IMG/VR virus record: IMGVR_UViG_3300043803_001772
DNA: 64,000 bases
Strand: one strand, 5' to 3'
Source of the DNA: a virus
Lineage: Duplodnaviria > Heunggongvirae > Uroviricota > Caudoviricetes
Numbering within the stretch: position 1 is the stretch's first letter; every line of letters begins with the position of its first letter. Positions 12,572-48,313 of the stretch are shown piece by piece. The notes under the pieces are model-generated. The model had not been told where the DNA came from. It saw only the letters and a program-made list of their open reading frames with translations, and did no database searches. Position numbers and translations under genes: made by a program.

Positions 12572-12606
12572 AGTCAAGGACGATGAAAATCTCCTTGACT
12601 TTTTTC
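12572..12606 (+). terminator. rho-independent terminator (agtcaagga/tccttgact + TTTTTT) overlapping the next promoter's -35
   Basis: 9-bp stem, 11-nt loop, T6. Located after the DUF262-like gene. Confidence 0.6.
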
Positions 12607-12623
12607 TTGCGCCGTGGTAATAT
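12595..12623 (+). promoter_or_regulatory. sigma70-like promoter TTGACT-N17-TAATAT for the DNA ligase, -35 embedded in terminator stem
   Basis: ccgtggTAATAT. The -35 hexamer forms the 3' arm of hairpin 12572-12600. Confidence 0.55.
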
Positions 12624-12633
12624 TATAAAAGAT

Positions 12634-18526: not shown

Positions 18527-19090
18527 CTAAAAATTCAATAAAGAATAATCTGGGTGTAATAAATCTTTATATTTATAAACTCTAAAATCTATACTCAGTC
18601 TTGTTTTGTTAGTATTGTTGAATTTATTACCGTGAAGTAAATTGCAACCATCCCAATGTACAAATTGACCGTAATCACATTTTATCGGAGAAAAATCGTG
18701 ACTGTCTTCAACTGATTCAGTCCAAATTGTGTTTGTATCAAAAGCATTTGTAAATGGTAAAAAAATATTATCTATCTGCATATCACTATAAATCGTATTT
18801 TTTCTATACCACTTGTCTTTATGAAGTTTATGCATATTTAATTTATTTTTATATACTAATCTACACACTGGTTTAGTTTGATATGCTATAACACCATTAT
18901 ACAACTCTGTGATATATTTTCTTATAAACTGTACATACATATCTAAAAACTGTTTATCTGATAGATAATCTGAATATAGTCGCTCTATGTCTTTATTTTC
19001 ATCCAAATTATCTAAATTAGATGTGTTTAAAACAGTTTGTAATTGTTCTTTAAAATTAAATTCTGTTATATCATATGAATATAATTTCAT
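18527..19090 (-). CDS. 2OG-Fe(II) oxygenase-like protein (HxD...H...RxS), tentative
   Basis: MHKLHKDKW (HxD), about 70 aa later LLHGNKF (second His), then 10 aa later KTRLSIDFRV (RxS). This is the facial-triad spacing of PhyH/2OG-Fe(II) dioxygenases. Very AT-rich relative to flanking Gly-rich genes. Confidence 0.4.
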   Translation of the reverse strand: MKLYSYDITEFNFKEQLQTVLNTSNLDNLDENKDIERLYSDYLSDKQFLDMYVQFIRKYITELYNGVIAYQTKPVCRLVYKNKLNMHKLHKDKWYRKNTIYSDMQIDNIFLPFTNAFDTNTIWTESVEDSHDFSPIKCDYGQFVHWDGCNLLHGNKFNNTNKTRLSIDFRVYKYKDLLHPDYSLLNF

Positions 19091-19758
19091 ATATCTGTCA
19101 AATAACCCATTCTGTGTTCGGTCGATAAATCTATATTATTATATATAATACGATTAATATTGTCATCTGTATGATAATTTTCTGTTATATCATTATTAAG
19201 TTTTACACCGACATAACTTTTATTAATAATGTATTGTTGATTTTTTTTAACCAATTCAAATTTATTGCTAATATCATTTAATACAAAATCAGTGTTGTGT
19301 TTCAAATCTTCGTATCGTATAAAATAATACTTATTTACTAACTCAGGCATATCGTCCAACAAATATTTACATTTTATAGAACGCATCTCAAATATGTTTT
19401 TGAATCTTAAATTGTTGTTTTTAAAATTTCTATCATCCAAAATATCTACATATTTTCCTTTGTGTAAATACACCGAATAAAATTCATTTAATAAAAAAGA
19501 CTCTATGTTTTGCGTTCTTTCTATAGGTTGTAATAGTTTGGAATTATAAAAAGATATTAAAAAATCTATGGGGTTTCTTGCAATACAAAAATAAATTACA
19601 TCTTGGTTATTTTTCAATTTATTTTCATATCCACTATAACCAAAAAAATGTTTCCAACCACCTAACCAATCCAACTTCAATTCAAAGTTATCAGATATCA
19701 ATTGTTCTAAAAAATTTGTTCCTGATCGTCGTTCCCCTAATATTGTATAACGATTCAT
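19087..19758 (-). CDS. sulfotransferase-like protein (PAPS 5'-PSB-like motif), tentative
   Basis: N-terminal TILGERRSGTNFLEQLI resembles the sulfotransferase 5'-phosphosulfate-binding loop (P/G)(K/R)SGTT. Overlaps the oxygenase-like gene by 4 nt, indicating coupling. Confidence 0.5.
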   Translation of the reverse strand: MNRYTILGERRSGTNFLEQLISDNFELKLDWLGGWKHFFGYSGYENKLKNNQDVIYFCIARNPIDFLISFYNSKLLQPIERTQNIESFLLNEFYSVYLHKGKYVDILDDRNFKNNNLRFKNIFEMRSIKCKYLLDDMPELVNKYYFIRYEDLKHNTDFVLNDISNKFELVKKNQQYIINKSYVGVKLNNDITENYHTDDNINRIIYNNIDLSTEHRMGYLTDI

Positions 19759-20126
19759 ACATATCTACTATCAGTTTGTTTCCAATTAGGCACTTTATTT
19801 TCCCAATAATCTATTCTACTGTGTACATCGTCCCAATTATTAGGACAACTTATATATTCAATACTAGCTGGTATAACTAAATCATCAACATTTATATCTA
19901 ATTTTATAGACACACCACCACTTTCTTCTGCAATTGGAGAATCTGTATAGGAAGGCGTGTTTATAATAATAGTTGGAAACGCACTAATATATGGATATTT
20001 TAATCGAACATTATACCCATCATCTTCTAACACAACAACATCATTTCTGTTACCATATGTAGCAACAAATTCTCTACTTATTTTATCGTGAATACTATGT
20101 AGTATGATTATATCTTTCATTTTCAA
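19755..20126 (-). CDS. partner protein B of the Gly-rich fibre cassette (123 aa)
   Basis: Paralog of 16837-17166. Starts immediately after the stop of Gly-rich protein B. Confidence 0.5.
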   Translation of the reverse strand: MKMKDIIILHSIHDKISREFVATYGNRNDVVVLEDDGYNVRLKYPYISAFPTIIINTPSYTDSPIAEESGGVSIKLDINVDDLVIPASIEYISCPNNWDDVHSRIDYWENKVPNWKQTDSRYV

Positions 20127-21368
20127 TTAAATATGTACTTTTCTCACTGTTACGCTACCTGCTCCTCCTGATCCCCCCGAGCCAGCAGGGCCTGCTCCAC
20201 CACTTCCACCATTCGCAACCACGCTTCCAGCATTGGTGTATGTACCTCCATAAATTATTAAAGTTCTACCACCTCCACTACCTCCACCACCACCCGCATT
20301 ATCACTACCGTTAGCCGCACCTAGTCCACCGGTTGTCCCATTATTTGAAACAGTACCATTTATTGTAATATTTCCCCTCACAATAAATACTAATAACCCG
20401 CCAACACCTATTGATCCATTAGTACCAGGACCAGGTTGATTTAAAACTCCCGCGCCCCCACCGCCAGTAGGTCCATAGTAGTTTCGTGAACCAGCACCAC
20501 CACTTTCAAGAAGTCCTGAACTTCCAGCAGTAACTGCAAGTAGAAGCCCACCATAACCGCCGCCGCCACCGCCGCCACCAGTAAATATTGTCCCCCTACC
20601 TCCAGCATAACCAGATCCAAAAGAACCATATTTTTGTGCCCCATTACCACCACCGCCTCCACCCCCACAACAAAAAATTCCAGCTGTGCCAGTTGATCCA
20701 GCTCCACTACCCCCACTTCCGCCGGCGCCTCCAGCAACACTTCCACTTAATGGCACTCTTATCTTAAAATTACTAAACCAAGTACTACCACTAGGCGCCC
20801 AATTCCAATGCGTAGGTATGCCTCTTCCACCAGAAGCACTTGATGAAAAATTATTGAAATATAGTGTAGCATCCACCAAATCATATCTTGAATCTGTACT
20901 TGATGCAAGTCCAATAGGCGCAGCAATTTTGGCAACAACACCGCCGCCTTTGCCAGTCATACTTATGGTACCGTTCACGGTCAAGTCGCCTGTACAATAT
21001 ATAACCAAACCTCTACAAACTCGTAATGGACTAAACAATACGCCGCTGTTGATAGTTAAATTTTGAAAATTCTTTACAATTGTATCGCCAAATTCACGGC
21101 TGATATTGTTTAATCCAGCGGGTGAAGTTGATGAACTTATTTGCGCACTACTGCTTACAGTGCAATTACCATCGGCGCCTGTACCAAAATAATTATCATA
21201 ACTACTTAAACTGCCTACTGTAGTATTATTGCTATAAAATAAATTATGTGCTGTTATTCTAGCTTTTTCATTTGTATTTGATATTAAATCAACAATAGGC
21301 AGTACACAAGTATCATTGTTTTTGCTGCCTGTCAATATTGACATTGATGATATTGATAAAGTTGCCAT
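20127..21368 (-). CDS. glycine-rich beta-helix-like putative tail fibre/adhesin B (413 aa)
   Basis: Near-collinear with 17212-18501 and shares long identical nucleotide stretches (for example ccagtcatacttatggtaccgttcacggtcaagtcgcctgtacaatatataaccaaacctctacaa). Confidence 0.55.
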   Translation of the reverse strand: MATLSISSMSILTGSKNNDTCVLPIVDLISNTNEKARITAHNLFYSNNTTVGSLSSYDNYFGTGADGNCTVSSSAQISSSTSPAGLNNISREFGDTIVKNFQNLTINSGVLFSPLRVCRGLVIYCTGDLTVNGTISMTGKGGGVVAKIAAPIGLASSTDSRYDLVDATLYFNNFSSSASGGRGIPTHWNWAPSGSTWFSNFKIRVPLSGSVAGGAGGSGGSGAGSTGTAGIFCCGGGGGGGNGAQKYGSFGSGYAGGRGTIFTGGGGGGGGYGGLLLAVTAGSSGLLESGGAGSRNYYGPTGGGGAGVLNQPGPGTNGSIGVGGLLVFIVRGNITINGTVSNNGTTGGLGAANGSDNAGGGGGSGGGRTLIIYGGTYTNAGSVVANGGSGGAGPAGSGGSGGAGSVTVRKVHI

Positions 21369-21370
21369 AA

Positions 21371-22402
21371 TTATAAAACTTGCAATTCCTTTATAGTAAT
21401 GCTTCCTGCTCCGCCATCGCCACCTTTAGTTGGTGCGGTACCCCCACCTATACCACCAGAAACGGAAATAGTACCTCCGTTATTAACATAACCTTGATTA
21501 TATAATATTACTATTCTACCACCTCCACTACCTCCTCCACCACCAGCAGATCCAGCGCCACCATTTACCCCACGTGCCGTGATTATACCAGTATTACCAA
21601 GTGTAAATGTTCCTTTAACAACGAGAATAATTAATCCGCCAGTTCCAGTTCCTCCACTTATTCCACCTGGGCCACCTGCTCCACCATTATTACCAGCTCC
21701 CCCACCAGTGTTAGCTGCACTACCTGCTCCACCGGCGCCACCATTAACAGAACCAGCTGTAGCACTTGGTCCACCCCCACCACCCGATCCACCACTCCAA
21801 CTGGTACCTGCGGTTCCTGCACCACCAGCATAACCACCTCCGCCTCCACCAGTATAACCTTCTCCAGCAGATCTACCTGCTGTACTAGCCGCACCACCTC
21901 CACTGCCTGAACCATACAATTTTACACTATTAAATTGATATTGAGGTATAAAGTTACCATAATAATTTTTAGCTTGATATACATAATGAGCTGCGGTTCC
22001 AACTGCATTTGCGCCTTTAGCTGTCATAGTAAGTGTACCATTTATAGTACAATCACCGGCTACGTATATTAATAAACCCTTACACCGATTGCTTACGGTC
22101 ATTGTATGACCAGCATTGATTGTGAGAGATGTATAATTTCTTACCAATACTTCCGCGTCATTAGACGTTGCAAATGTTACACTCGATGTTGTGTTCAATG
22201 AACCATTAGCACCAGTCCCAAACCAAGTTATAGCTGATTGAGAAAACTGACTACATACATTTGTATATTTAACCTTTTTGTTAAAATCTACGTATCCATC
22301 TGCATTTTGATCTTTTGTAGCAGTCGCATCATATACCAAATAATAATTACTTGATGATATAATTGAAGTTTCTGTTAAATCTGTTATACGTTTATTTGCC
22401 AT
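21371..22402 (-). CDS. glycine-rich fibre-like protein C with N-terminal RITDL anchor motif (343 aa)
   Basis: MANKRITDLTE N-terminus; CKGLLIYVAGDCTINGTLTMTAKGA; Gly tracts; LIILVVKGTFTLGNTGIITARG; GGGRIVILYNQGYVNNGGTISVSGG. Confidence 0.55.
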   Translation of the reverse strand: MANKRITDLTETSIISSSNYYLVYDATATKDQNADGYVDFNKKVKYTNVCSQFSQSAITWFGTGANGSLNTTSSVTFATSNDAEVLVRNYTSLTINAGHTMTVSNRCKGLLIYVAGDCTINGTLTMTAKGANAVGTAAHYVYQAKNYYGNFIPQYQFNSVKLYGSGSGGGAASTAGRSAGEGYTGGGGGGYAGGAGTAGTSWSGGSGGGGGPSATAGSVNGGAGGAGSAANTGGGAGNNGGAGGPGGISGGTGTGGLIILVVKGTFTLGNTGIITARGVNGGAGSAGGGGGSGGGRIVILYNQGYVNNGGTISVSGGIGGGTAPTKGGDGGAGSITIKELQVL

Positions 22403-22415
22403 ATATTATTAAATA

Positions 22416-23558
22416 TTAGTTTGCTGCTGGAAATGCAGTATTTAGTTTTTGTATTATAGCAGTTCCAGCTCCACCAGCTCCACTAGCTCCTCCACCAAAT
22501 GGAGATCCACCGGAACCACCATTTGATGTGACAGATCCATTATTAGTCAATTGACCACCATAATATACATATAACACTCCACCCCCACTACCCCCACCCG
22601 CGCCACTGCCTCCAACTATGTTTGCATTATTACCCGCGCTCCCATTAGTAGTTATACTACCATTTGGTCCTATTTTTAAATTACCCCTCACAATTAATAT
22701 TAACAATCCACCCGTGCCTGTTGCTGTTTGTGATCCACCTGTTCCATTTGGATTTCCAGCTCCTCCACCACTATTACCACCTCCACCTCCATTTCCACCT
22801 GCTCCTCCAATCGGACTACCATTAGATCCCGCGCCAGCCGGAGCTCCGCCTCCGCCGCCTCCAGCTCCACCACTATAAGACGTTCCTGTTCCTCCTGATC
22901 CTCCTCCTGCTGTTCCATATGGACCAGTACTGGTAGAACCTCCACCTCCACCACCTGATCTTCCCAATCCACCAGCTGTTCCAGCAGTTGAACCACCGCC
23001 GCCTGCCGCACCAACAGCAAATACTCTGCTCAAATAACTTGATGATGGAAACAACTGTGTGCTCCAATAATCACCCAAATATGGCGGATTTACTGTTGTA
23101 AAAGAAGCATCTGCACCTACAGCAGACGCGCCTCTAGAGGTCATAGTTATGCTGCCACTGATAGTCGCATCACCATCCACAAATATCAACATACCTCTAC
23201 ATCTGTTAGGCGGACTTATAACCACACTTCTAGAAATGAACAGTGAGCTAAAGTTCTTGATGACAGGAGGACCATCACTAGTGCTTGCGAACGAAGCGGA
23301 TATACGAGTTCTTAGAGTTGTGATAGAACCACTGAAGTTGCCTGATCCATCGCTATTATCACCAAAATAATAAAGACCAGGTGTATGTTTGGTAAACGAA
23401 GAGGAATTATTTCCATTTAAATAAAAATATTTTCGTAAATCATTTACACTTATTTTTTTATTTTTGGAATTTATAGATTCATTAGCGTCTACTATGGGAA
23501 CAAATGAACCAGTTGATATTATGATACTCTCAGCTAAATCTGTAATTCTAGTTGGCAT
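22416..23558 (-). CDS. glycine-rich fibre-like protein D with RITDL anchor (380 aa)
   Basis: MPTRITDLAES...PIVDANE...KNKKISVNDLRK. Paralog of 23572-24750 (shared LYYFGDNSDG.GNFSGSITTLRTRISASF...CRGMLIFVDGDATISGSI). Confidence 0.55.
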   Translation of the reverse strand: MPTRITDLAESIIISTGSFVPIVDANESINSKNKKISVNDLRKYFYLNGNNSSSFTKHTPGLYYFGDNSDGSGNFSGSITTLRTRISASFASTSDGPPVIKNFSSLFISRSVVISPPNRCRGMLIFVDGDATISGSITMTSRGASAVGADASFTTVNPPYLGDYWSTQLFPSSSYLSRVFAVGAAGGGGSTAGTAGGLGRSGGGGGGSTSTGPYGTAGGGSGGTGTSYSGGAGGGGGGAPAGAGSNGSPIGGAGGNGGGGGNSGGGAGNPNGTGGSQTATGTGGLLILIVRGNLKIGPNGSITTNGSAGNNANIVGGSGAGGGSGGGVLYVYYGGQLTNNGSVTSNGGSGGSPFGGGASGAGGAGTAIIQKLNTAFPAAN

Positions 23559-23571
23559 ATATTATTATATA

Positions 23572-24750
23572 TTAATTCGCTACAGGAAACGCAGTGTTTA
23601 GTTTTAATAAAACAGATGTACCAGCTCCTCCTGCTCCTCCCTGATTGACAGTTGGCGCTGCTGGTGTACCAGTTAAACCACCTGATCCACCGTTGGATGT
23701 AACAGTACCATTGTTTGTTAATGTGCCACCATAATAAATATATAAAACGCCACCTCCACTTCCACCCCCACCCGCACTTCCAAAAGCAGCAATTCCATTA
23801 CCCCCACTGATTCCATTAGCTACAATTGATCCATTTGGACCTATTTTTAAATTGCCTCTTACAATTAATATTAATAATCCACCTGTACCGGCTGGGGCGG
23901 AGACTGGGAGAGGACTAAATGGTGCCGCGGCTGGCGTTACACCACCTGGATTGCCAGCTCCACCTCCTCCGTAACCAAGTGTTGGACCACCTTGACCACC
24001 AAATGCAAAACCATTCGCTCCCGGAGATGGTCCTCCTCCTCCTCCTCCTGACCCACCACTAAAAGATGTGCCTGCTGATCCAGCTCCACCTGCAGCTGCT
24101 TGTCCACCTCCTCCACCGCCGCCTCCACTTCTTCCTAATGTACCAGTTACACCAGTACCACCAACACTAGATGGAGTAGGACCAGCTGGACCGCCACTTG
24201 CGCCTATAGCAAATACTCTGCTCAAATAACTTGATGATGGAAACAATTGAGTGCTCCAATAATCACCCAAATATGGCGGATTTATTGATCTAAAAGACGC
24301 ATCACTTCCAGTGAATTTTGCACCTCTAGCAGTCATACTAATACTACCACTAATGGTTGCATCTCCATCAACAAATATCAACATACCTCTACATCTGTTA
24401 GGCGGACTTATAACCACACTTCTAGAAATAAAAAGGCTACTAAAGTTTTTGATGACAGGAGGCCCGTCTAATGAGCTAGAAAATGAAGCGGATATTCTGG
24501 TTCTGAGAGTTGTGATGGATCCGCTAAAATTGCCTGGCCCATCACTATTATCACCAAAATAATAAAGGCCTGGGGTATGTCTAATAAAAGAGCTAGTATT
24601 TCGTGAATTTAAGTAAAAAACTTTTCTTAAATCGGTTATGCTTATTTTTTTATTTTTATCACCAACTGTTTCGTTGTTGTCAACTATTGGTATAAATGCC
24701 GATGCGGTTAATAAATTATATTCAGCTAGTTGTGAAATTTTTGTAGGCAT
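23572..24750 (-). CDS. glycine-rich fibre-like protein E with anchor (392 aa)
   Basis: MPTKISQLAEY...PIVDNNE...KNKKISITDLRK. Paralog of 22416-23558. Confidence 0.55.
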   Translation of the reverse strand: MPTKISQLAEYNLLTASAFIPIVDNNETVGDKNKKISITDLRKVFYLNSRNTSSFIRHTPGLYYFGDNSDGPGNFSGSITTLRTRISASFSSSLDGPPVIKNFSSLFISRSVVISPPNRCRGMLIFVDGDATISGSISMTARGAKFTGSDASFRSINPPYLGDYWSTQLFPSSSYLSRVFAIGASGGPAGPTPSSVGGTGVTGTLGRSGGGGGGGGQAAAGGAGSAGTSFSGGSGGGGGGPSPGANGFAFGGQGGPTLGYGGGGAGNPGGVTPAAAPFSPLPVSAPAGTGGLLILIVRGNLKIGPNGSIVANGISGGNGIAAFGSAGGGGSGGGVLYIYYGGTLTNNGTVTSNGGSGGLTGTPAAPTVNQGGAGGAGTSVLLKLNTAFPVAN

Positions 24751-24761
24751 ATAACTTTTTA

Positions 24762-26129
24762 TTAACTAAAATTTCTTCCCCAAGTAAATGATTGTGATAT
24801 TGCTAACAAATATCCAGATTGTTTGTTTTGCTGTGCACCAAATACAAATGACATTAAATTGCTTGCGGTTTGTACTCCAACACCAAAACTTCTCCAATTT
24901 GAATTGAGTGATTCAGTGTCATTGAAAGTAGCTACCTTAGTTATAGTATAACCAAAACTACTTGTTGGATAAACTCTTCTATAAACAGGTGTTGCATCAA
25001 TTGATTTGGTAATAAAATTTGTATTTCTTGTTATGTTGGTACCCCAACTAGGACTAGATCCACTATTTGTGCTGGTAAATACATACAATCCTCTATATGA
25101 AGAAGGTAAACCATATTTACTTGTTTGATTAAAGAAATATGGTTCATTGCCATGTAATCCACTGTCAGTATATGTGGTTAATCCACTACCACTTACTTTG
25201 CTTAATCCGTAAAGATTCATTTGAGAATTACCACCTTTATTGCTTCCACTTAAACTAACAGAACCAGTAAGTGCCGTTGTGGGCGACATTGTTACTCTTA
25301 AACTATAAAAAACAGTTATATTTTGACCTGCTTTCACAGGAGCTAGTGCTGTACCTGCGGATCCAGATGTTAATCGTATTCTGCTAAATAGTGATGGACT
25401 ATTAAAGAATGGCAACCAACTTAAACCAACTTCTGTGACATATGCGGTTTGATCAACTGTTGCGGCAGCAAAATTAAATTGTCTATTGTGTGTTACAAAA
25501 CTACTTCCAAATGTAGTACTACAAGCCGATCCGAAACTTCCTGATGCAGCTGGAAAGTTGTTTCCATCATTGTTACGTCCACATTTTTGAGTTTCATTGG
25601 ACATACTAATTTGATTGGTAAAATAAATTGTATAATTTTTATCTGTAGCAGAACCTGTTGGTACACTGCCATCCAAATTCAATACACTACAACTTCTAGC
25701 TTGATTTGAACCAGTTTGTGCTTTTATTCTAAATGTATTATCCCCAACTATATTAATGATATTACCAACATCACTTGCTCTAATTACACTGCCTGATATA
25801 GGATACGATGGACTTGTTCTTGGAAATGTTACTAAATGTCCACTTCTCTTTGCCGTTGAATATAACAAATTTTGATCAAATCCATTTCCAGAAATAATAG
25901 ATCCGGTCACAGGTACATTTGTTTTTTTAGTTTCAGCTAAACCAGTACCAATAGAACAACAAGTAAACAATTCTGCAATTGGCCTATTAGCAACTTCATC
26001 CATTCCTTGGTTCAATATTAAGTTATTAATATAACCAGTATCTTTAATCACTGTGTCTCCCTCTGAGACAGTTAATCTAACTTGACCGTGTAGTTTATAA
26101 TCAATATTGTTACTAATAGAGTTTTGCAT
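24762..26129 (-). CDS. virion structural protein (455 aa), distant paralog of 57578-59650
   Basis: Shares RIRLTSGSAGTALAPVKAGQNITVFYSLRVTMSP with KIRLDPPITLHAGQYLRVNYELRVNMSP in 57578-59650. Confidence 0.5.
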   Translation of the reverse strand: MQNSISNNIDYKLHGQVRLTVSEGDTVIKDTGYINNLILNQGMDEVANRPIAELFTCCSIGTGLAETKKTNVPVTGSIISGNGFDQNLLYSTAKRSGHLVTFPRTSPSYPISGSVIRASDVGNIINIVGDNTFRIKAQTGSNQARSCSVLNLDGSVPTGSATDKNYTIYFTNQISMSNETQKCGRNNDGNNFPAASGSFGSACSTTFGSSFVTHNRQFNFAAATVDQTAYVTEVGLSWLPFFNSPSLFSRIRLTSGSAGTALAPVKAGQNITVFYSLRVTMSPTTALTGSVSLSGSNKGGNSQMNLYGLSKVSGSGLTTYTDSGLHGNEPYFFNQTSKYGLPSSYRGLYVFTSTNSGSSPSWGTNITRNTNFITKSIDATPVYRRVYPTSSFGYTITKVATFNDTESLNSNWRSFGVGVQTASNLMSFVFGAQQNKQSGYLLAISQSFTWGRNFS

Positions 26130-26137
26130 TTGTACCT

Positions 26138-27379
26138 TTAGTCTGTTAATAAATAGGAGTCATCCTCTAAATAAATATATTTAAAATTCTGAAATGCTAA
26201 AGTAGAACCCGTAGCATTACTTTGACTCATATAATAATTTGTAAACAATAATAAATTGTTAGAACCAGTTTCATTTAGTCGCACATTACTTATCGTTTCT
26301 TTGATTAATATATCATTATTTTCAAGATATATTGCTCTATCGTTTTGATAACCAATTTGACTTGCTAATGACGATGAAGCATCAGCAAGTATATATTTAG
26401 TACTTAAACTTGTAGTATTGGAGCCTGTTTCATTTAGTCGCACATTACTTATTGTTTCTTTGATTAATATATCATTGTTTTCCAAGTAAATAGCTCTATC
26501 GTTTTGATAACCAATTTGTGTAGCGGACGTTGACACCGTATCAGCTAATGTATATTTGGTATTTAAAATTGTTGTACTTGATCCAGTTTCATTTAGTCTT
26601 GTAATAGGTGGCGGTGCCTCTGTTATGAAAATGTCTAGATTTTGTAGATAAACAGCTTTATTATTTTGATATATTATTGAATCTCCGGCACCATTGGATT
26701 CAACTAAGAAATACTTGGTATTTAATGATGTATTTAAACTGCTTGTTTCATTTTGTAGTGTGTTGCTTACAGTTTCTTGTATAAATATATCAAAATTCTG
26801 TAAATAGATGCTACGGTTGTTTTGATAAACTATATTGGTTGATGTACTACTAGCTACACTTTCACTAGCATAATATTTAGTTTTTAATAAAGTGCTAAAA
26901 CTGCCTGTTTCACTTTGTCTGGTGTTGCTTACAGTTTCTTGTATAAATACATCAAAATTTTGCAAATAGATGGATCTATTATTTTGATAAATTAAATTGT
27001 TAGTGCTTGAGGCGGCTACACTTTCACTAGCATAATACTTGGTGTTTAATGATGTATTTAAACTGCTTGTTTCATTTTGTAGTGTGTTGCTTACAGTTTC
27101 TTGTACAAATATATCAAAATTTTGTAGGTAAATGCTTCTATTATTTTGATAAATTAAATTGGTTGATGTACTACTAGCTATACTTTCACTAGCATAGTAC
27201 TTAGGTGAAACAGTGTTGAATAATGTGGGTCTATCAGAAACGAATTTATTGTAAAAACTACTATATGCAATTGCCACTGATCCAGTTCTAAATCCACTGC
27301 CAGTAGCGAATAATCTAGATTCAATATTTTGTCGTTTATTGTTAGCAAATACTAGATAATTACGAAATATAGCAGGCAT
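26138..27379 (-). CDS. repeat protein (413 aa) built from about six 54-aa tandem repeats
   Basis: KYYASESVASSTSTNLIYQNNRSIYLQNFDIFVQETVSNTLQNETSSLNTSLNT repeated. Encoded by a 162-bp DNA tandem array. Confidence 0.5.
   Translation of the reverse strand: MPAIFRNYLVFANNKRQNIESRLFATGSGFRTGSVAIAYSSFYNKFVSDRPTLFNTVSPKYYASESIASSTSTNLIYQNNRSIYLQNFDIFVQETVSNTLQNETSSLNTSLNTKYYASESVAASSTNNLIYQNNRSIYLQNFDVFIQETVSNTRQSETGSFSTLLKTKYYASESVASSTSTNIVYQNNRSIYLQNFDIFIQETVSNTLQNETSSLNTSLNTKYFLVESNGAGDSIIYQNNKAVYLQNLDIFITEAPPPITRLNETGSSTTILNTKYTLADTVSTSATQIGYQNDRAIYLENNDILIKETISNVRLNETGSNTTSLSTKYILADASSSLASQIGYQNDRAIYLENNDILIKETISNVRLNETGSNNLLLFTNYYMSQSNATGSTLAFQNFKYIYLEDDSYLLTD
26270..27240. repeat. 162-bp tandem repeat array, about 6 copies (encodes 54-aa protein repeats)
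   Basis: Period seen directly: 26276/26438 and 26745/26907/27069 share tcatt(t/a)(a/g)gt...cttacagtttcttgtataaata blocks. Confidence 0.6.
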
Positions 27380-27387
27380 ATAACAAT

Positions 27388-28251
27388 TTACTGATAATTT
27401 TCTGTAGAACTACCAAGAATATAATTATTAGATCTTAGAAAAGTGTAAATTGATGTTGCACTCGGTAAAATATTAGTGGGATAGAGTGAATTTGCCCATT
27501 TAACTGTAACTGGAAACGTTGGAAGAACATTGTTTGAACCTGTATTGTTTAATATGACGACTATAGCACTACCTGTTCCAACATTTGTAAACGTATAAGT
27601 TTCACTAGTTGATACATTTTTTTCAAGTGTATTATTGGTCCAGTTAATTGATGTACCTGACAGTGTAGCTATCGTATAATTAGTTAAAGCATTTATCGCA
27701 AAAGTAGCATAACTGCTTGTAATTGGATAACTACTACCTGTACTTAAAGAAGATCCTCCGCTAGCATTTAAAGCGTAACTAGCTGTAATCGATCTTCTCG
27801 AATAACTGCTTGTTATGGGATACGTACTTCCAGTAAATAATGTAGTACCGCTTATACCACTACTTCCACTACTACCACTTGAACCATTGGTGCCGGATGT
27901 ACCACTTGTTCCACTAGTGCCACTGGTACCACTTGTTCCACTGGTGCCACTGGTGCCACTTGATCCACTAGTACCACTGTTACCTGATGTACCACTCGTA
28001 CCAGCATTTGCGTTTAAAGCGTAACTAGCTGTAATTGATCTTACCGCATAACTACTTGTTATAGGATAAGTACTACCTGTACTTAAAGTTGTTCCTCCAG
28101 CTCCTGACTTCAGTGAGTAACTAGCGGTCAAAGATCTTAAAGCGTAACTACTTGATCCAATTATTGTATTTTTAAAAAAAACACTACCACTTACTTTAAG
28201 TGATCCGCTTAAAATAGTTGATCCGGATAATGTCGGTGAGTAAATGATCAT
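27388..28251 (-). CDS. collagen-like (Gly-X-Y, proline-free) short fibre protein (287 aa)
   Basis: (GTS/GSS)n tract of about 40 triplets flanked by TGSTYPITSSY..SITASYALNA repeats shared with the giant fibres. Confidence 0.5.
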   Translation of the reverse strand: MIIYSPTLSGSTILSGSLKVSGSVFFKNTIIGSSSYALRSLTASYSLKSGAGGTTLSTGSTYPITSSYAVRSITASYALNANAGTSGTSGNSGTSGSSGTSGTSGTSGTSGTSGTSGTSGTNGSSGSSGSSGISGTTLFTGSTYPITSSYSRRSITASYALNASGGSSLSTGSSYPITSSYATFAINALTNYTIATLSGTSINWTNNTLEKNVSTSETYTFTNVGTGSAIVVILNNTGSNNVLPTFPVTVKWANSLYPTNILPSATSIYTFLRSNNYILGSSTENYQ

Positions 28252-28285
28252 ATTTTATATAAATAGAGATTGGTTATTATAAATT

Positions 28286-31200
28286 TTATGTTATTCGTAT
28301 TTGTAGTATATTTCCATTGCGGTACACGCCACCGCGTGGTACTCCGCCAGTACCAGCCGCAGTATCATTTGCGAAATTTAGTGATGCTGATACATAAGAC
28401 AATATCAGATATCCATTGCTAATCGTCTGACTATTTTTAAAATTATTACTACCGGTTGTTGCTAAATTAGATGCAGCTGGTATTGTTCTTAATCCACTTC
28501 TTGTGGCAATGGCATATCCACTACTTGATACAGGAAAAGTAATTGTAGCCGTATTTAAATTTGTAAGTACAATGGTTTGTGGTAATACTTGGTTAAAACT
28601 ATTATTATAAGTTTGTATCAATACTGGTTTACTACCAAGATTGTGATTAAATGTCCACGTGGGGGAATTATTAAAAGAAGAACTTACACTGTCACTATTT
28701 AATAAATTAAGAGCTACACTAGCAGTAATTGCTTTTCTTGACCAACTACTGGTTATAGGATAAGTACTGCCTGTATATAGTTTATAACTACTGCTCAATA
28801 CTCTTAATCCACCCATCGTCGCAATAGCTGTTCCAGCAACAGGCGATGGAAAAATCATTCTTATATGATTTGCATCTAACCATTTAGTTGTTGTGGGTAA
28901 TATTAATTCATATACATTATTATAAGCTTGTACGACAACTTGTTTTTGACCCAAACTATGAGTAAAATTCCATGTTGTAGAACTTCCAAAAGATTGAGTT
29001 ACACTATTGCCAAAGTTGTTAGCATAACTAGCTGTAATTGCTTTGAAAGCCCAGCTACTGGTTATAGGATATTTACTACTTGTATAAATTCTAGTGCCTG
29101 CATTAACAGCCCAACTACTGGTTATAGGATAAGTACTGCCTGTATTTAAGTTGTAATAACCATAACTGCTACTAAATATTCGTACACCACCTCTGGTTGC
29201 AATAGCATAACCACTAGCTGATATTGGGAACGTTAATCTAGCACTATTAACTGTATCCAATATAATACTTTGAGGTATTATTTGATTATAACTTGTATTA
29301 TAGGCTTGAATTACTACAGTTCGTTCACCCAAGTTATGATTAAATGTCCAAGTAGCTAAATTATTGAATGATTGTGTAACACTGTTACCAAAGTTAAGAG
29401 CATAACTAGCAGTTAATACTCTAGTGGCCCAACTGCTTGTTATAGGATATTTACTACCAGTGTGTAATGATGATCCACCTCCACCCCCACCAGCGGCGTT
29501 ACCCAAAAATCTAACATCAATCTTTGAATTTAATGGCGGTGCAGATGCTAATGTGAGTGTAGATCCAGTTACAGTATAACTTGAACTGTAATTTTGCACT
29601 ACACCGTTAATAGCAACTATAATATCATAACTGCGTATTACACTTTGTGTAAGCGCATATTGTGTAACAATACCATTGCTTGTAAATGTTTGCGCATTGG
29701 CAATACCAACTATACCACTGGTGCCACTTGTACCGTTTGCACCACCCCCAGTAAATTTAACAACGTGTATTTCTTCATTTAATAGTGGTGGGGAAGTAAA
29801 TGTCAATACACCTGAACTGAGTGTATAATCAACACCATTATTTAAAGTAATACCGCCAAGAAATACCAATGAATTTGTGCCGGTAAATGTATTATTATTT
29901 AAATTAAAAACAGATCCACTGCCATTGCCACTACGTGTAATATTAGTCAAACTCAATGAAGCAGTGCCACTAGTTCCATTTACTACATACAATGCCCAAC
30001 TTGCAGTAATAGGATAACTACTACCAGTGTACAAAGAACTACCACCACCAGTAGCATTTAAAGCATAACTAGCAGTTATAGCTCTACTAGCAGTAATTGG
30101 ATATGTGCTTCCTGTTATTAAAAGAGTACCACTGTTTCCACTTGATCCGCTACTTCCAGTTTCACCACTACTTCCACTACTACCATTAGTTCCACTAAAT
30201 CCACTGCTTCCGCTTGTACCACTTTGACCACTAGTACCACTGGTACCAGTAGCGCCACTTGTTCCACTAGATCCACTTGTGCCGCTCGTACCAAATGTTT
30301 CACCGCTTGTACCGGCAGTAGCCGCAGTACCACTTGTACCACTACTTCCACTACTACCACTACTTCCGCTACTACCACTAGATCCACTGGTACCGCTACT
30401 ACCACTTGTACCACTAGATCCACTTGTACCGCTTGTACCAAATGTTTCACCACTCGTACCAGCAGTAGCTGCAGTACCACTGGTGCCACTACTTCCTCCT
30501 GTACCACTACTTCCACTTGATCCGCTACTACCACTTGTACCATTAACTCCAGAAGTGCCACTGGTACCACTTGTACCGTCACTGCCTGATGTACCGCTTG
30601 ATCCACTGGTACCACTACTGCCACTGCTTCCAGCGGTGCCACTTGTTCCACTACTACCGCTACTTCCACTTGTTCCACTTTGACCACTACTGCCACTGCT
30701 TCCAGTAGTACCACTTGTTCCGCTAGTACCACTGGTACCATTTGTATCTACTATGTTGATTGTACCAATCATAGAACTATGATTTGCACATTGATAAACT
30801 ATACTGCTCGGCGCATTCAGTGGAACATCATATATTATTGTAACATTGTAAGCTCCATTTACAGGATCATTATTTGTTGTTCCTGGCACAACAGATGTAT
30901 CACCATTTGACAATCTTAAAGCAAACGGATGTGTTGATGATACAGATGTAAGATTAAAATAGTGTTTTAATCCACGTACTACGGTGATGGTTGGATTACT
31001 ACCGGATATATTATTAAAAGTATAATAAAATCCAGGTGAATTTACTACAAACGTTTTACCGCCTTCCAATCCACTTGTACCACTGGTACCGCTAGATCCA
31101 CTACTACCACCGCTTCCGCTACTGCCACTTGTTCCATTTTGACCACTTGTACCAGATGTTCCACTTGTACCATCACTTCCGCTTGTACCACTAGTACCGC

Positions 31201-31888
31201 TTGAGCCTGTTAATCCACTTGTGCCACTTGTACCAGATGAACCACTGCTTCCACTACTACCACTACTACCGCTAGATCCACTACTTCCACTGGTACCTGA
31301 TGTACCACTTGTACCGCTGGTGCCACTACTTCCAGCTGTGCCTGATGTACCTGATGTACCACTGGTTGTTTGATTTAAAGCGTAACTTGCGGTTACTGCC
31401 CAACTTGCAGTTATGGGATATGTACTTGATGTAAACAGTTTGGTACCACTGTTTAATGCCCAACTTGCGGTTATAGGATAGGTACTACCTGTATATAATT
31501 TGGTGCCACCGTTTAATGCCCAACTTGCAGTTATTGGATAAACACTACCTGTATATATTTTTGTACCACCGTTTAAAGCGTAACTTGCGGTGGTTGTTCT
31601 AAAAGCATAACTTGATGATCTAGCTGTTAATGCGTAACTAGCTGTTGTGGATCTTCTAGCATAACTTGCAGATGTTGCGTTAAATGAATAACTGGAAGAT
31701 AAAGAGTAACTAGCTGAAATTGCTTTTCTTGAGAAACTGGCAGTTATGTTTGGGGAAGAAAAAAGAGTACTGATATCAATCTTTTTACTTGACCCAGAAA
31801 AAAAGCTGCCTGTATCACTTACATCAATTACATACAGCAAATCATTGATAGACGCTGTAAATAATTGTGGTAGATCTGTTATTCTCAT
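28286..31888 (-). CDS. giant tail-fibre protein (1200 aa) with RITDL anchor, two collagen-like tracts and 20-aa YPITASW repeats
   Basis: MRITDLPQLFTASINDLLYVIDVSD...KKIDISTLF N-terminus. ALNGGTKLYTGSTYPITASW x3. Two G-(T/S)-S tracts with an internal duplication (GTSGTAATAGTSGETFGTSG twice). Confidence 0.6.
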   Translation of the reverse strand: MRITDLPQLFTASINDLLYVIDVSDTGSFFSGSSKKIDISTLFSSPNITASFSRKAISASYSLSSSYSFNATSASYARRSTTASYALTARSSSYAFRTTTASYALNGGTKIYTGSVYPITASWALNGGTKLYTGSTYPITASWALNSGTKLFTSSTYPITASWAVTASYALNQTTSGTSGTSGTAGSSGTSGTSGTSGTSGSSGSSGSSGSSGSSGSSGTSGTSGLTGSSGTSGTSGSDGTSGTSGTSGQNGTSGSSGSGGSSGSSGTSGTSGLEGGKTFVVNSPGFYYTFNNISGSNPTITVVRGLKHYFNLTSVSSTHPFALRLSNGDTSVVPGTTNNDPVNGAYNVTIIYDVPLNAPSSIVYQCANHSSMIGTINIVDTNGTSGTSGTSGTTGSSGSSGQSGTSGSSGSSGTSGTAGSSGSSGTSGSSGTSGSDGTSGTSGTSGVNGTSGSSGSSGSSGTGGSSGTSGTAATAGTSGETFGTSGTSGSSGTSGSSGTSGSSGSSGSSGSSGSSGTSGTAATAGTSGETFGTSGTSGSSGTSGATGTSGTSGQSGTSGSSGFSGTNGSSGSSGETGSSGSSGNSGTLLITGSTYPITASRAITASYALNATGGGSSLYTGSSYPITASWALYVVNGTSGTASLSLTNITRSGNGSGSVFNLNNNTFTGTNSLVFLGGITLNNGVDYTLSSGVLTFTSPPLLNEEIHVVKFTGGGANGTSGTSGIVGIANAQTFTSNGIVTQYALTQSVIRSYDIIVAINGVVQNYSSSYTVTGSTLTLASAPPLNSKIDVRFLGNAAGGGGGGSSLHTGSKYPITSSWATRVLTASYALNFGNSVTQSFNNLATWTFNHNLGERTVVIQAYNTSYNQIIPQSIILDTVNSARLTFPISASGYAIATRGGVRIFSSSYGYYNLNTGSTYPITSSWAVNAGTRIYTSSKYPITSSWAFKAITASYANNFGNSVTQSFGSSTTWNFTHSLGQKQVVVQAYNNVYELILPTTTKWLDANHIRMIFPSPVAGTAIATMGGLRVLSSSYKLYTGSTYPITSSWSRKAITASVALNLLNSDSVSSSFNNSPTWTFNHNLGSKPVLIQTYNNSFNQVLPQTIVLTNLNTATITFPVSSSGYAIATRSGLRTIPAASNLATTGSNNFKNSQTISNGYLILSYVSASLNFANDTAAGTGGVPRGGVYRNGNILQIRIT
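30088..30703. repeat. GGN/AGY-rich collagen-like triplet-repeat DNA (G-T/S-S)n
   Basis: More than 600 nt of 9-nt-periodic accactDccgct-type repeats. The complementary strand gives spurious PLVP ORFs. Confidence 0.6.
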
Positions 31889-31912
31889 TCTTTAATAAAT
31901 ATTAAAACACTA

Positions 31913-34363
31913 CTATATATCTATACTAAATCCATATTCATCCACCAATGTTCCGCCATCTTCTAATGCTGCTTCTACCCAAATACCTGAAGTTGCGCTT
32001 ATTTTACGTTCACTATTGGAACAATTGAGTATTACAGGCAATTTCCAGTTGGAACCTGTATCATATTGATATATCGGCCAGTTTTTTGTAACGAAACTGG
32101 CTCTATAAGGTGTATTATAATCAAAGTTGGTTACATACAAACCAGGATTAGAATTACCTATTACTTGAAATGCTAAATCTTGACCATAATTTACTATACT
32201 TTGCGTTAAATTACCCCCACTCATATAATAAACTATATTGACTTGATTTACATAGTTTGTGGGAGAATCACTATTAAACGTTACAGTTGAAGCGGTACTA
32301 TATGGTCTAAATGTTGTATTTGAACCCAATACAGTTTCACTAATATTAGGTGTATATGATATATCTTTAAATGACCCAGACAATTTTGTCTTGTTATTTA
32401 TATCACTTTCACTTCGTAATGATGATAATCTATTGTTTGCACTAACATTTACTTCAAATCTAATATCATCATATTTCAATGATTTTAAGTTTGATGATTG
32501 ATTTACCAACTTATTATTAGATTCATCTTCATATACCAATTTTTTCAAATTATCGGTGGTATTAACCAATTTACCATATTCACCCAAAGAATAATTCAAA
32601 CTATTTAATGCCACATTGTATGTCATATTATTTGAATACGGTCCTTGAAACATACTCAAATTGGTCAATACACTGCTATTTTGCGTAACTGTTCTGATAT
32701 ATTCGTTGGGTACAAATGTTATGGAATGTAAAGAAGTTGCAAATGAAGCATTATCACCATAATCAGCGGATTTTAGTAGTAAACCATTTAAACCATTGGT
32801 TTGCGCAACCAAATCAATTTCATATTGATTGTAATTTAAACTACTAATAGTGAAATTTTCATTTACAATTTCAAGTTGTACATTATTATGACTTAAACTA
32901 CCCAAAACATTATTTGAAATTGAATTATCACCAAAATTAATATAGTTGCTTAAACCATTTAAAGATATAGAGTTATTGGATATATCAGAAAAATTTGTGT
33001 AATTGTTTAAACCGATTATATTACTTGTATTAATTGATGTGTCATTATAATTTACATAATACCCCGAGGATTTTAGTACTAATGAATTATTGGATGCATC
33101 AGTATAATTTATATAATATCCAGAAGATTTTAATGTTAATGAATTATTAGATGCGTCAGTATAGTTAACATAATACTGCGATCCTAACGTAGATACAGCA
33201 TTTTGTGATGCATCATAAAAATCCACATAGTACTGTGATCCTAACGTAGATACAGCATTTTGTGATGCATCATAAAAATCCACATAGTACTGTGAACCCA
33301 CTGTAGATAATGCGTTTTGAGATGCATCATAAAAGTTAACATAATATTGTGAACCCAATACCGTTAATGAGGTTTGTGATGCATCATAAAAATCTACATA
33401 ATACTGCGAACCCACCGTGGATACTGCGGTTTGTGACGCATCATAAAAATCTACATAGTATTCTGAACCAGCTACTGATACATCTATTTGCGATGAATCG
33501 GTATAGTCTACATAATATTGTGAACCAACTGTAGATACTGCGGTTTGTGATGCATCAAATATATTTGTGTAATAAGATGATCCAAATAACTGTACATTAT
33601 TGTTTCCAATATCAACTTGAGATGGTAAATGTAATGTGCTATATAAGTTAACACTATTAACTGAATTATCAATATCAGGTTTATAATTTGTGATACTGTT
33701 AAGTGACGTATTAGTATTACCACCATCTAATATATCTGTATAATAATTTGAACCATTTAATGCTATATTTGTTATTATTTGATCAGATAGATTTTTGTAG
33801 TGATCTACACTGTTTAGTGTATTGTATATAACACTTGAATTTAATATTGGAGTATCATATACGGTACTATTTAGTGTTATATTTTGATTACCAACATTTA
33901 TTTTTGGATCAACTAATTGAACGTTTGAAACGTTAATTGAATTAAAAACAGGATCACCTTCAAGTTTTAAACTTGTGTTATTTAAGGTAGGAGATATTGT
34001 AGCTGATTCTACAGATGCGTTTGTGTATACAACACTGTTTAGTGATTGTGCATAATCAATTTTATCCCCTATTGATGTTGGAATAGAAATACTATTGAGA
34101 GAACTGTATAATGTAGCTGGATTATATAGTGGAATAACATTAGCTGAACGTAATGTTATATTATTGGTAGCTGATTCTGTATCTAATTTGGTAAGAGCGG
34201 AGTTTAGTGTGAGGTTTAAACTTGCACTTTCAACTACTTTGACTCGGAAAATGAGATTGCGTCTATTTAATGAAAGAGGCGTACCCAAATACTTTCTGGT
34301 GAGAAATACTGGGTAGATCGGATTAAATAGAAACGACGATGAATTTGTAGCTCTAAATATCAT
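31913..34363 (-). CDS. fibre/adhesin protein (816 aa) with about ten 19-aa tandem repeats
   Basis: VGSQYYVDFYDASQ(T/N)AVST repeated. Encoded by a 57-bp DNA tandem array at about 33050-33560. Confidence 0.55.
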   Translation of the reverse strand: MIFRATNSSSFLFNPIYPVFLTRKYLGTPLSLNRRNLIFRVKVVESASLNLTLNSALTKLDTESATNNITLRSANVIPLYNPATLYSSLNSISIPTSIGDKIDYAQSLNSVVYTNASVESATISPTLNNTSLKLEGDPVFNSINVSNVQLVDPKINVGNQNITLNSTVYDTPILNSSVIYNTLNSVDHYKNLSDQIITNIALNGSNYYTDILDGGNTNTSLNSITNYKPDIDNSVNSVNLYSTLHLPSQVDIGNNNVQLFGSSYYTNIFDASQTAVSTVGSQYYVDYTDSSQIDVSVAGSEYYVDFYDASQTAVSTVGSQYYVDFYDASQTSLTVLGSQYYVNFYDASQNALSTVGSQYYVDFYDASQNAVSTLGSQYYVDFYDASQNAVSTLGSQYYVNYTDASNNSLTLKSSGYYINYTDASNNSLVLKSSGYYVNYNDTSINTSNIIGLNNYTNFSDISNNSISLNGLSNYINFGDNSISNNVLGSLSHNNVQLEIVNENFTISSLNYNQYEIDLVAQTNGLNGLLLKSADYGDNASFATSLHSITFVPNEYIRTVTQNSSVLTNLSMFQGPYSNNMTYNVALNSLNYSLGEYGKLVNTTDNLKKLVYEDESNNKLVNQSSNLKSLKYDDIRFEVNVSANNRLSSLRSESDINNKTKLSGSFKDISYTPNISETVLGSNTTFRPYSTASTVTFNSDSPTNYVNQVNIVYYMSGGNLTQSIVNYGQDLAFQVIGNSNPGLYVTNFDYNTPYRASFVTKNWPIYQYDTGSNWKLPVILNCSNSERKISATSGIWVEAALEDGGTLVDEYGFSIDI
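33050..33560. repeat. 57-bp tandem repeat array, about 9-10 copies (encodes 19-aa repeats)
   Basis: Identical 57-mers at 33180 and 33237 (gatcctaacgtagatacagcattttgtgatgcatcataaaaatccacatagtactgt). Diverging copies on both sides. Confidence 0.6.
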
Positions 34364-34680: not shown

Positions 34681-35382
34681 TTATAGTCCAAATCTGTTTT
34701 TAGTTGCGTTGTAATTAAATAATATTTCGCTGGAACTCAATACTCTGTTATATAATCTTACAATTGCTATACTGCCATTGAAATAACTGGGTGCCCAAGT
34801 AGCTGCTCCTATTTGTAAAGAGGTTGATGTATTAGGCAAAGTTGATGGTAAACTATTAACTCTACCACTGTATGATGTTTCTCTTCCATTAACAAACGTT
34901 CTTAATTGAGCACTTGGTGTAGCCAAACCAATTACTTGATTCCACGATCCCAAAGTTACACCTGTAGAAGTTTCTAAATAAACATCTGAGCCAGGAGAAC
35001 TCCAGTCAAAATATAAGTTACCCGAACTATACGCTATAAACCTGGGATTATCAGGTGTAGCACCACTGTCACTTGTTCCTCTATTTAAAAATGTGCCTGT
35101 TGTTGCAACGGTGGGTTTAATCCACACTTCATATGTAGCGCCATTTGGGGTGTTTAAAATAGAATTATATGGAACATTTACATAATCATTGGTACCATCA
35201 AATACTATACTTCCTTGATTACCCGCGCTAAAAGTGGGACCATTGGTTAATGTGCCTGTATTGTTATTGCCGCTCAAATCACGCCAAGTGGTACCTGTGC
35301 CAGGATAACTAAGTTTATCAGCAGCATCTAGTGCTAATACCAAACCGCTTGTTACAATTTTTGGACCTCTGGCTATTCCCAT
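34681..35382 (-). CDS. standalone Laminin_G_3/ConA-like lectin-fold protein, copy 3 of cluster 1 (233 aa)
   Basis: GLVLALDAADKLSYPGTGTTWRDLSGNNNTGTLTNGPTFSAGNQGSIVFDGTNDYV... ending IVRLYNRVLSSSEILFNYNATKNRFGL. This is the FDG.NDYV plus YNRaLsaeEi signature of the LamG_3 family. Confidence 0.6.
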   Translation of the reverse strand: MGIARGPKIVTSGLVLALDAADKLSYPGTGTTWRDLSGNNNTGTLTNGPTFSAGNQGSIVFDGTNDYVNVPYNSILNTPNGATYEVWIKPTVATTGTFLNRGTSDSGATPDNPRFIAYSSGNLYFDWSSPGSDVYLETSTGVTLGSWNQVIGLATPSAQLRTFVNGRETSYSGRVNSLPSTLPNTSTSLQIGAATWAPSYFNGSIAIVRLYNRVLSSSEILFNYNATKNRFGL

Positions 35383-35393
35383 ATACAGTATAA

Positions 35394-36101
35394 TTATAAA
35401 CCGAATCTTGTTTTAGTTGCGTTATAATTTTGCAATACTTCAGCTGTACTTAATGCTCTATTGTATATAAGGGCCGTTGATATATTTCCTTGCCAATATC
35501 TTCTAGAATTAATCGCATCAGCCCCTATACTTAATAAAGCAGATGCATTTTGTTTAAGTGTTCCATCATATGCGATACCACCATCTAAAATTCCGTTATA
35601 ATAAAAATAAACTTGACCCGCAGTTGCATTTGCTACCATTGATATATTATACCAAATATTTGTAGAAAAGTTTGTAGCGGTAGATGTAGTTTCACGATAA
35701 GTATTGTTACTTTGCCTAACTCCCCACCCCCATCTTTTAGGCGACAAATCGGCTCTCCAAAGTATATAATAGAGTTCATCACTAGCTGCACCTAATTCTA
35801 TAGGATTTCTTATTGTTGTGTCACTAGCAGTCAATCTAAGCCAAATAGAAAGTGTAACACTTGTAGACGGATTAAAAATACTGTTATATGTAAAACCAAC
35901 ATAATCATTTGTACCATCAAATACTATACTACCCATATTACCCGCGTTAAAAGTGGGACCATTGGTTAATGTGCCTGTGTTATTATTACCGCTTAAATCA
36001 GTCCACGTTGTGCCACTGCCTTTATAACTAAGTTTATCAGCTGCATCTAGTGATAAAACACATCCGCTTGTAATTATTTTGGGTCCTGATATTCCTGACA
36101 T
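35394..36101 (-). CDS. standalone LamG_3-like protein, copy 2 of cluster 1 (235 aa)
   Basis: Same conserved N-terminus and C-terminus (ALIYNRALSTAEVLQNYNATKTRFGL). Divergent central region. Confidence 0.6.
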   Translation of the reverse strand: MSGISGPKIITSGCVLSLDAADKLSYKGSGTTWTDLSGNNNTGTLTNGPTFNAGNMGSIVFDGTNDYVGFTYNSIFNPSTSVTLSIWLRLTASDTTIRNPIELGAASDELYYILWRADLSPKRWGWGVRQSNNTYRETTSTATNFSTNIWYNISMVANATAGQVYFYYNGILDGGIAYDGTLKQNASALLSIGADAINSRRYWQGNISTALIYNRALSTAEVLQNYNATKTRFGL

Positions 36102-36104
36102 ATA

Positions 36105-47607: not shown

Positions 47608-47618
47608 ATACAGTATAA

Positions 47619-48302: not shown

Positions 48303-48313
48303 ATATATTATAA

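Follow-up and report, generated by a model that had tools for sequence, protein, structure and literature searches.

Several genes on the minus strand of a stretch of phage DNA (IMG/VR virus record IMGVR_UViG_3300043803_001772) encode fibre-like proteins that begin in a similar way, and the locus therefore raises two questions: whether the resemblance is due to common descent, and what the shared segment might do. The stretch, which I will call the window, is 64,000 nucleotides (nt) long and comes from a genome of roughly 170-250 kb; all scans of the window cover these 64 kb only. In phages, receptor-binding proteins (RBPs) commonly combine a conserved N-terminal anchor with variable bodies, several of them to a virion, and an earlier note on this DNA read the locus in that light, as a family of at least four fibre genes sharing an anchor of about 40 residues. 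As described below, the shared segment, henceforth the module, is found in six genes that carry bodies of two types, and may well serve to dock the proteins onto the virion.

The four open reading frames (ORFs) named in the earlier note are all present in the ORF list, on the minus strand and with the coordinates and N-termini it gave, and the four do carry the module. The list was nonetheless incomplete, lacking the two genes at 20127-21368 and 17212-18501. The full set is as follows, with E-values from the external hidden Markov model (HMM) described below and protein lengths in amino acids (aa).

28286-31888, minus strand: collagen-like long fibre of 1200 aa; after the module come repeats of SSYAxRxxTASYAL/YPITAS and tracts of collagen (G-x-y), and the C-terminal part is divergent.
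31748-31888, minus strand: N-terminal module of that fibre, aa 1-47, MRITDLPQLFTASINDLLYVIDVSDTGSFFSGSSKKIDISTLF; HMM E = 4e-13, and E = 4.4e-6 by hhalign against the module of the 380/392 type.
23572-24750, minus strand: Gly-rich paralogue of 392 aa, a predicted beta-solenoid; module aa 1-46 (24613-24750); part of a full-length alignment of the paralogues (A1); HMM E = 3e-11.
22416-23558, minus strand: Gly-rich paralogue of 380 aa, a predicted beta-solenoid; module aa 1-46 (23421-23558); HMM E = 3e-11.
21371-22402, minus strand: Gly-rich paralogue of 343 aa; module aa 1-56 (22235-22402), with an insertion (LVYD...FNKKV); HMM E = 1.6e-7.
20127-21368, minus strand: Gly-rich paralogue of 413 aa; degenerate module aa 1-49 (21222-21368); HMM E = 2e-4.
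17212-18501, minus strand: Gly-rich paralogue of 429 aa, 77% identical to the 413-aa paralogue; degenerate module aa 1-49 (18355-18501); HMM E = 3e-6.

The module may be written as the pattern (M-x1-4)-[KR]-I-[ST]-x-L ... D-x-[LFV]-[PY]-[IV]-[IV]-D ... [NST]-K-K-I-x-[IV]-x-x-L. It occurs in the six genes as four subtypes (fibre, 380/392, 343 with its insertion, and 413/429) that are only 23-57% identical to one another. Relative to orthologues, the fibre type is 93-98% identical and the 343 type 76-78%, the remaining subtypes being less conserved.

To establish a relationship at such distances requires profiles, not single sequences. A phmmer search within the window with the fibre found the correct gene, 22416, as its best non-self match, though at an E-value (0.45) that is not significant, and 21371 matched 22416 with E = 0.04. 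By contrast, when the six window N-termini were combined into a profile (alignment A2) and this was searched against 1.84 billion representative proteins at E<=1e-3, it matched 118 proteins (representatives of 50%-identity clusters, 44-1263 aa in length), the match beginning at residue 1 in 115 of them and within the first 8 residues in 117. The external HMM was made from 44 N-termini, after orthologues of the window proteins and one false positive had been removed and the remainder reduced by identity, and was then searched against the ORFs that the window contains in six frames, 884 in all. Exactly six matched, with E-values from 4e-13 to 2e-4 and each from Met1, as compared to 0.89 for the best ORF outside the family and 0.06 for the best match in 20 residue shuffles of all window ORFs. 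Finally, hhalign comparison of fibre-type with 380/392-type N-termini, using only orthologues of each, gave a probability of 86.6% and E = 4.4e-6, with 38 columns in register.

The earlier note had itself warned that the similarity might be an artefact of Ser/Ile-rich composition. Only the insignificant phmmer result speaks for a coincidence of Ser/Ile/Thr-rich sequence or a bias at the starts of genes, and the contrast between the HMM and the shuffles, the hhalign E-value, and the alignment in register of 118 database proteins, nearly all from their first residue, make that explanation so improbable that I set it aside. Judged by these profile comparisons, the N-terminal similarity of the six genes is homology, not composition.

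The bodies behind the module are another matter. They had been thought to diverge completely, and this is wrong for three of the four genes first recognised: those at 21371, 22416 and 23572 align over their full lengths, and so do those at 20127-21368 and 17212-18501 with them. When the N-terminus is removed, BLASTP with composition adjustment still connects 22416 to 21371 (E = 2e-19) and to 20127 (E = 6e-12), and the signal comes from motifs other than glycine (VKNF-SL-I and NRCRG-LI-V-GD-TI-G-I-MT-KG). The body of the long fibre is unrelated to those of the paralogues (E = 13). Since five bodies align full-length and that of the fibre stands apart, the six module genes encode two body types, and by alignment five of the six are tandem paralogues of a single Gly-rich protein. 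The notion of four different receptor-binding tips on one anchor has therefore to be given up.

The long fibre is recognisable as such by its families. It matches Pfam Collagen (PF01391) with E = 7.6e-35 and a score of 118.9 bits, where the cut-off is 27.2, alone among the six proteins, and it matches PHROG tail-fibre families as well. Its C-terminal 400 aa are only 23-58% identical to those of its orthologues, as compared to the highly conserved module given above, and taken at the level of sequence this combination of conserved module and variable distal end is the classic gradient of an RBP. That the five paralogues also have fibre- or spike-like bodies is less clear, since the Gly-rich body matches beta-helix and solenoid folds only (by predicted structure), with no family assignment. 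Searches of Pfam, NCBIfam and PHROGs gave the Gly-rich paralogues no family beyond a weak match to phrog_13336, and their 532 metagenomic homologues are all unnamed. The only matches that Foldseek gave among viral models were to proteins either collagen-like or uncharacterised, and PDB sequence searches with the module and paralogue profiles returned nothing significant; SH3-like matches with E of about 0.3 were taken as chance. According to Pfam, none of the six proteins belongs to a depolymerase family, and C-terminal Peptidase_S74 (PF13884) is absent from all six. The proteins of the Gly-rich array are probably short spikes or adhesins.

A relationship between the Gly-rich paralogues and Gly_rich_2 (PF21722) was considered and rejected: Pfam gives no match, and hhalign of A1 against the C-terminus of the protein at 42160-46857 yields a probability of 0.9%. 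That protein, 1565 aa in length, does have a Gly_rich_2 domain at its C-terminal end (aa 1296-1528, E = 3.4e-19).

Across phages, the idea of a portable N-terminal unit on many unrelated bodies is borne out, mostly in tail-fibre families. When the sequences following the first 55 residues were compared for 86 of the proteins, they formed 19 clusters, none of which BLAST connects to another. Of 66 module proteins examined, 46 match the PHROG "tail fiber protein" families 18345/9942, and 27 have Peptidase_S74 at the C-terminus. Single window N-termini give weak tblastn matches to cultured phages, all of them at the first residues of annotated structural proteins. These are two adjacent tail fiber proteins of the cyanophage KBS-S-2A (CPKG_00002/00003), encoded directly after a tail protein; the virion structural protein UYE97296 of the cyanophage S-TIM54; and gp015 of Cellulophaga phage phi13:1, which the GenBank record gives as structural by tandem mass spectrometry (MS/MS). 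All have the module at the N-terminus, and the module HMM matches the four proteins with E-values from 8e-18 to 2e-8.

Gene order adds to this picture. IMG/VR locus L050 runs TMP, M, L, I, J, a collar fibre and two module-bearing fibres, and in lambda-like siphovirus contigs the module genes follow J, that is, they occupy the position of side tail fibres. A DNA pattern for MA[ND]RKI[ST]DLT was found in at least 120 viral contigs and gave 2 matches in 185,579 cellular genomes. Among the viral matches listed, most loci hold one module gene and a few hold two, so that six in one genome is unusual.

The module appears to have escaped description. Pfam has no family on the N-termini of the six window proteins or of the 66 external ones, and PHROG 23851 and PHROG 19691 both begin with the module (profile positions 1-50 and 4-45) but attach no function to it. 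A word-index homologue search with the 50-aa profile A2 yielded 3 matches, the index being ill-suited to so short a query. No published account of the motif was found in the literature searched. The module is thus a sequence family undescribed in the libraries and literature searched, even if the principle of a conserved anchor is itself textbook.

The Gly-rich genes vary in number between related genomes. Five copies are present in the window and in the related loci L001 and L004-L006, and seven in L132 (6063-14102), with the order of the array conserved across the relatives. The 413-aa and 429-aa copies are 69% identical over nucleotide positions 1-100 and 88-93% over positions 101-500, which looks, from the sequences, like a recent duplication or gene conversion in which the N-terminus is diverging faster. 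Copies of this type are adjacent in the relatives, whereas in the window a cassette lies between them:

18527-20126, minus strand: three-gene cassette encoding proteins of 187 aa, 223 aa (a sulfotransferase; Pfam Sulfotransfer_1, PF00685, E = 1.6e-5) and 123 aa.

The cassette is thus between the fourth and fifth array copies in the window and after the last copy in the relatives, adjoining the array in L004-L006 and L132. It might modify the fibres or a surface molecule of the host. As for the long fibre, its orthologue is intact in L005 (2361-5984, 1207 aa) and split in L004 (2610-5984, into 435+413+286 aa) and L006 (2618-5984, into 853+278 aa). The splits could be real variation, or they could come from errors of assembly or from frameshifts at or close to the collagen-like repeats.

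What, then, might the module do? The reading I favour, with moderate confidence, is that it is the virion-proximal docking element of fibre- or spike-like proteins. All six minus-strand genes start with a copy (~45 residues) of this one portable module, which would be a short element that takes on structure only in an oligomer or on a partner and that would plug its protein onto the tail, the baseplate or another fibre. Of the proteins that it heads here, one is the 1200-aa collagen-like long fibre, whose distal end diverges fast, and the other five are the Gly-rich proteins of a tandem array, variable in copy number, their body being a predicted beta-solenoid. An attachment end fits the combination of a portable N-terminal unit, tail-fibre bodies and a position after J. 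The predicted local distance difference test score (pLDDT) that AlphaFold2 (AF2) assigns to the module is under 35 in the context of the full protein; folded alone, the module reaches 67, with a predicted template modelling score (pTM) of 0.24. All that is modelled is a short beta-bridge that joins the IV-D segment to the K-K-I segment. Low confidence for a monomer is to be expected of a segment that folds on its partner. For this phage, that the module docks at all is an inference, and so would be any choice of target or any site common to the six proteins.

Several observations weigh against docking and hold confidence in it to a moderate level. No acceptor or socket protein was identified in the Pfam and PHROG scans of window proteins, and no solved structure found in the PDB search contains the module. 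Within the Gly-rich paralogues, the module is 40-78% identical to its orthologues, as compared to 72-84% for the body, which is the opposite of the usual pattern of conserved anchor and variable tip. The 413/429-type modules are degenerate, to the point that one copy in the relatives fails to match the module HMM (E > 0.01). A second copy, internal or in tandem, is found in four of the 118 proteins (P0141, at aa 1-45 and 66-109, P0149, P0157 and P0236), suggesting a structural repeat instead of an element confined to the terminus. There is also the matter that the sequences behind the external HMM were retrieved via a profile derived from the window and so are not fully independent of it. It was for this reason that the orthologue-only hhalign comparison, which makes use of no outside family, was added, and that comparison and the matches in cultured phages mitigate the dependence.

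The second copies, along with the short beta-bridge that AF2 predicts, can be accommodated by supposing that the module is not a docking element at all, serving as a nucleus for folding or oligomerisation or, in the shafts of fibres, as a small structural repeat such as a beta-hairpin cap. I consider this unlikely. All but one of the 118 occurrences are at the extreme N-terminus, and the bodies that the module precedes differ widely in architecture, with collagen and beta-solenoid among them. Moreover, fibres that end in Peptidase_S74, a domain typical of fibres and spikes, are folded from this C-terminal intramolecular chaperone, and so the module proteins that possess it, more than a third of those examined, have no obvious need for a nucleus at the other end. 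A different possibility accepts docking and denies that it is interchangeable at one site: each of the four subtypes would have its own partner or position, leading to a hierarchical or branched apparatus like that of Ackermannviridae or KP32-like phages. The divergence between subtypes, the conservation of the fibre and 343 types among orthologues, the faster change at the start of the 413/429 pair and the maintenance of array order are all consistent with it. Nevertheless, Pfam and PHROG recognise neither a protein with a T4 gp10-like branching domain nor any other acceptor in the window, and the divergence of the 413/429 module could equally be decay. I regard this possibility as tentative, though one that deserves more weight than a folding nucleus.

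To return to docking as the favoured function, the same observations bear on whether it would be interchangeable at a single baseplate site, as the earlier note had proposed. With subtypes so diverged, and with the 413/429 module changing faster than the adjacent body, docking would seem to be differentiated and not interchangeable: that is what the divergence of the 413/429 pair points to, and four subtypes with distinct sites or partners appear more likely than one common site. A broader proposal is that the module is a widely shared plug of siphophages, myophages and large aquatic phages, that at least six proteins compete or alternate here at one or more sockets, and that the array, with its 5-7 copies and its continuing duplication, is a cassette for diversifying host range. 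I think this rather improbable. If it were true, one genome could yield virions with different complements of fibres, and the fibres of environmental phages could be engineered with the module as a ready-made adaptor.

Conserved N-terminal anchors are of practical interest in that they make phage RBPs modular and open to engineering. The module is common in aquatic phages, as judged by the 118 cluster representatives, the viral contigs (at least 120) and the unrelated bodies (at least 19) in which it was found, and, now that it is defined, it can serve as a simple sequence marker by which to pick out fibre genes where the genomes of marine and freshwater phages lack annotation. The cultured carriers KBS-S-2A, S-TIM54 and Cellulophaga phi13:1 offer concrete targets for structural work. 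For the phage considered here, a single long fibre and an expanding family of paralogues take the place of the four different RBPs that were to share one anchor.

The G+C content of the window, which is AT-rich, runs from about 28 to 44% in 2-kb bins. A block of plus-strand genes encodes an SPFH protein, a GIY-YIG endonuclease, an RNA ligase and a DNA ligase, including these:

5948-7658, plus strand: GIY-YIG/NUMOD3 homing-endonuclease-like gene and RNA ligase, the endonuclease gene overlapping the start of the RNA ligase.
12583-13731, plus strand: ATP-dependent DNA ligase, closest (49.6%) to LR756511, an uncultured phage record of 595 kb.

The module genes belong to a minus-strand structural block extending from 17212 to about 60880, in which Pfam and PHROG scans find collagen-like giant proteins, many proteins with LamG domains, and PHROG tail-fibre and "baseplate wedge" families. 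The earlier estimate of more than 40 kb of fibre genes is roughly right, in that ORFs of the collagen-like, LamG and fibre families make up most of 17212-60880, except that the sulfotransferase cassette lies inside the block as well. Neither megablast of positions 20000-32000 nor tblastn of the 380-aa protein and of the conserved 455-aa protein at 24762-26129 found a match among 50,697 phage records. Syntenic relatives come from metagenomes, with contigs of 171 and 252 kb in JGI and of 38 kb in ENA. With no match at the DNA level in cultured phages and syntenic relatives only on metagenomic contigs, the window belongs, so far as sequence comparison can place it, to a large uncultured phage lineage.

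Other features of the block may be noted. Five other fibre genes on the minus strand begin with a second class of N-terminus (41582-41761, 46678-46857, 52226-52405, 57122-57301 and 28072-28251), described by the pattern L-x-x-L-I-x-x-G-x-F-T-G-S-F-x-G-T-S-S-Y-A-x-R-x-L-T-A-S-Y-A-L (alignment A6), and the SSYAxRxxTASYAL part of this pattern is also found directly after the module in the 1200-aa fibre. Tandem repeats are present in two proteins, neither of them assigned to a family: units of about 53 aa (159-162 nt) in the 413-aa protein at 26138-27379, and about 7-9 units of 19 aa (57 nt), SQYYVDFYDASQxAVSTxG, in the 816-aa protein at 31913-34363. Two triplets of LamG (Laminin_G_3) paralogues, at 34681-36773 and 46903-48994, encode proteins of about 225-235 aa whose N-terminal halves are almost the same, and LamG domains also occur within the giant proteins of 1122, 1565 and 798 aa. 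No Shine-Dalgarno-like sequence was seen upstream of the starts at 18501, 22402, 23558, 28251 and 34363. Several start codons have AT-rich motifs resembling TATAATA or TATATAA within about 20 nt. The consensus of T4-type late promoters is TATAAATA, and these motifs might be candidates for such promoters.

How does the module compare with known systems? The closest are the proteins of KBS-S-2A, S-TIM54 and phi13:1, which have the same module at residue 1 and are annotated as tail fibre or virion structural proteins. Those phages have one or two module genes, with other bodies, as compared to the six in this phage, and the N-terminal segment is not named as a domain in any of their records, in Pfam or in NCBIfam. 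More generally, T7 gp17 and lambda Stf attach by the N-terminus and bind the receptor by the C-terminus, and the same logic is proposed for the module. Lambda Stf is a side tail fibre encoded downstream of J, a position matched by the module genes of the lambda-like contigs. The anchor of T7 gp17 is about 150 aa in length and has a Pfam family, unlike the module N-termini, whether of the six window proteins or the 66 external ones.

A short N-terminal peptide with a demonstrated function is known from podophages of Klebsiella, namely KP32, K11 and KP34, in which the conserved N-terminal peptide of RBP2 binds the T4 gp10-like branching domain of RBP1 (PMC13352976). In KP32, 29 residues of RBP2 are necessary for incorporation into the virion and can be transferred to another enzyme domain (PMC13352976). 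That peptide and the module (~45 aa) are alike in being short, N-terminal and followed by unrelated bodies, whether catalytic or binding. The contact residues of KP32gp38 (Leu2, Asp3, Phe5 and Asn6; PMC13352976) do not fit the module pattern, as judged by description only. The function that has been shown for KP32 is one that I infer for the module, with no branching-domain partner recognised in the window: Pfam and PHROG find no T4 gp10-like branching domain among its proteins, in the 64 kb scanned of a genome of ~170-250 kb, and the matches to PHROG "baseplate wedge subunit" run only through LamG domains.

At the level of the whole apparatus, branched complexes of several RBPs are described for Ackermannviridae, with four tailspike proteins (TSPs) (PMC11414711), and for the Alcyoneusvirus phages RaK2 and phiK64-1 (PMC10253068). 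The phage considered here is unlike these in that five of its six module proteins share one Gly-rich body and belong to no depolymerase family (Pfam). It resembles them in being a large phage with many fibre or spike genes in one block, whose N-terminal parts are presumed to serve assembly and whose distal parts recognition.

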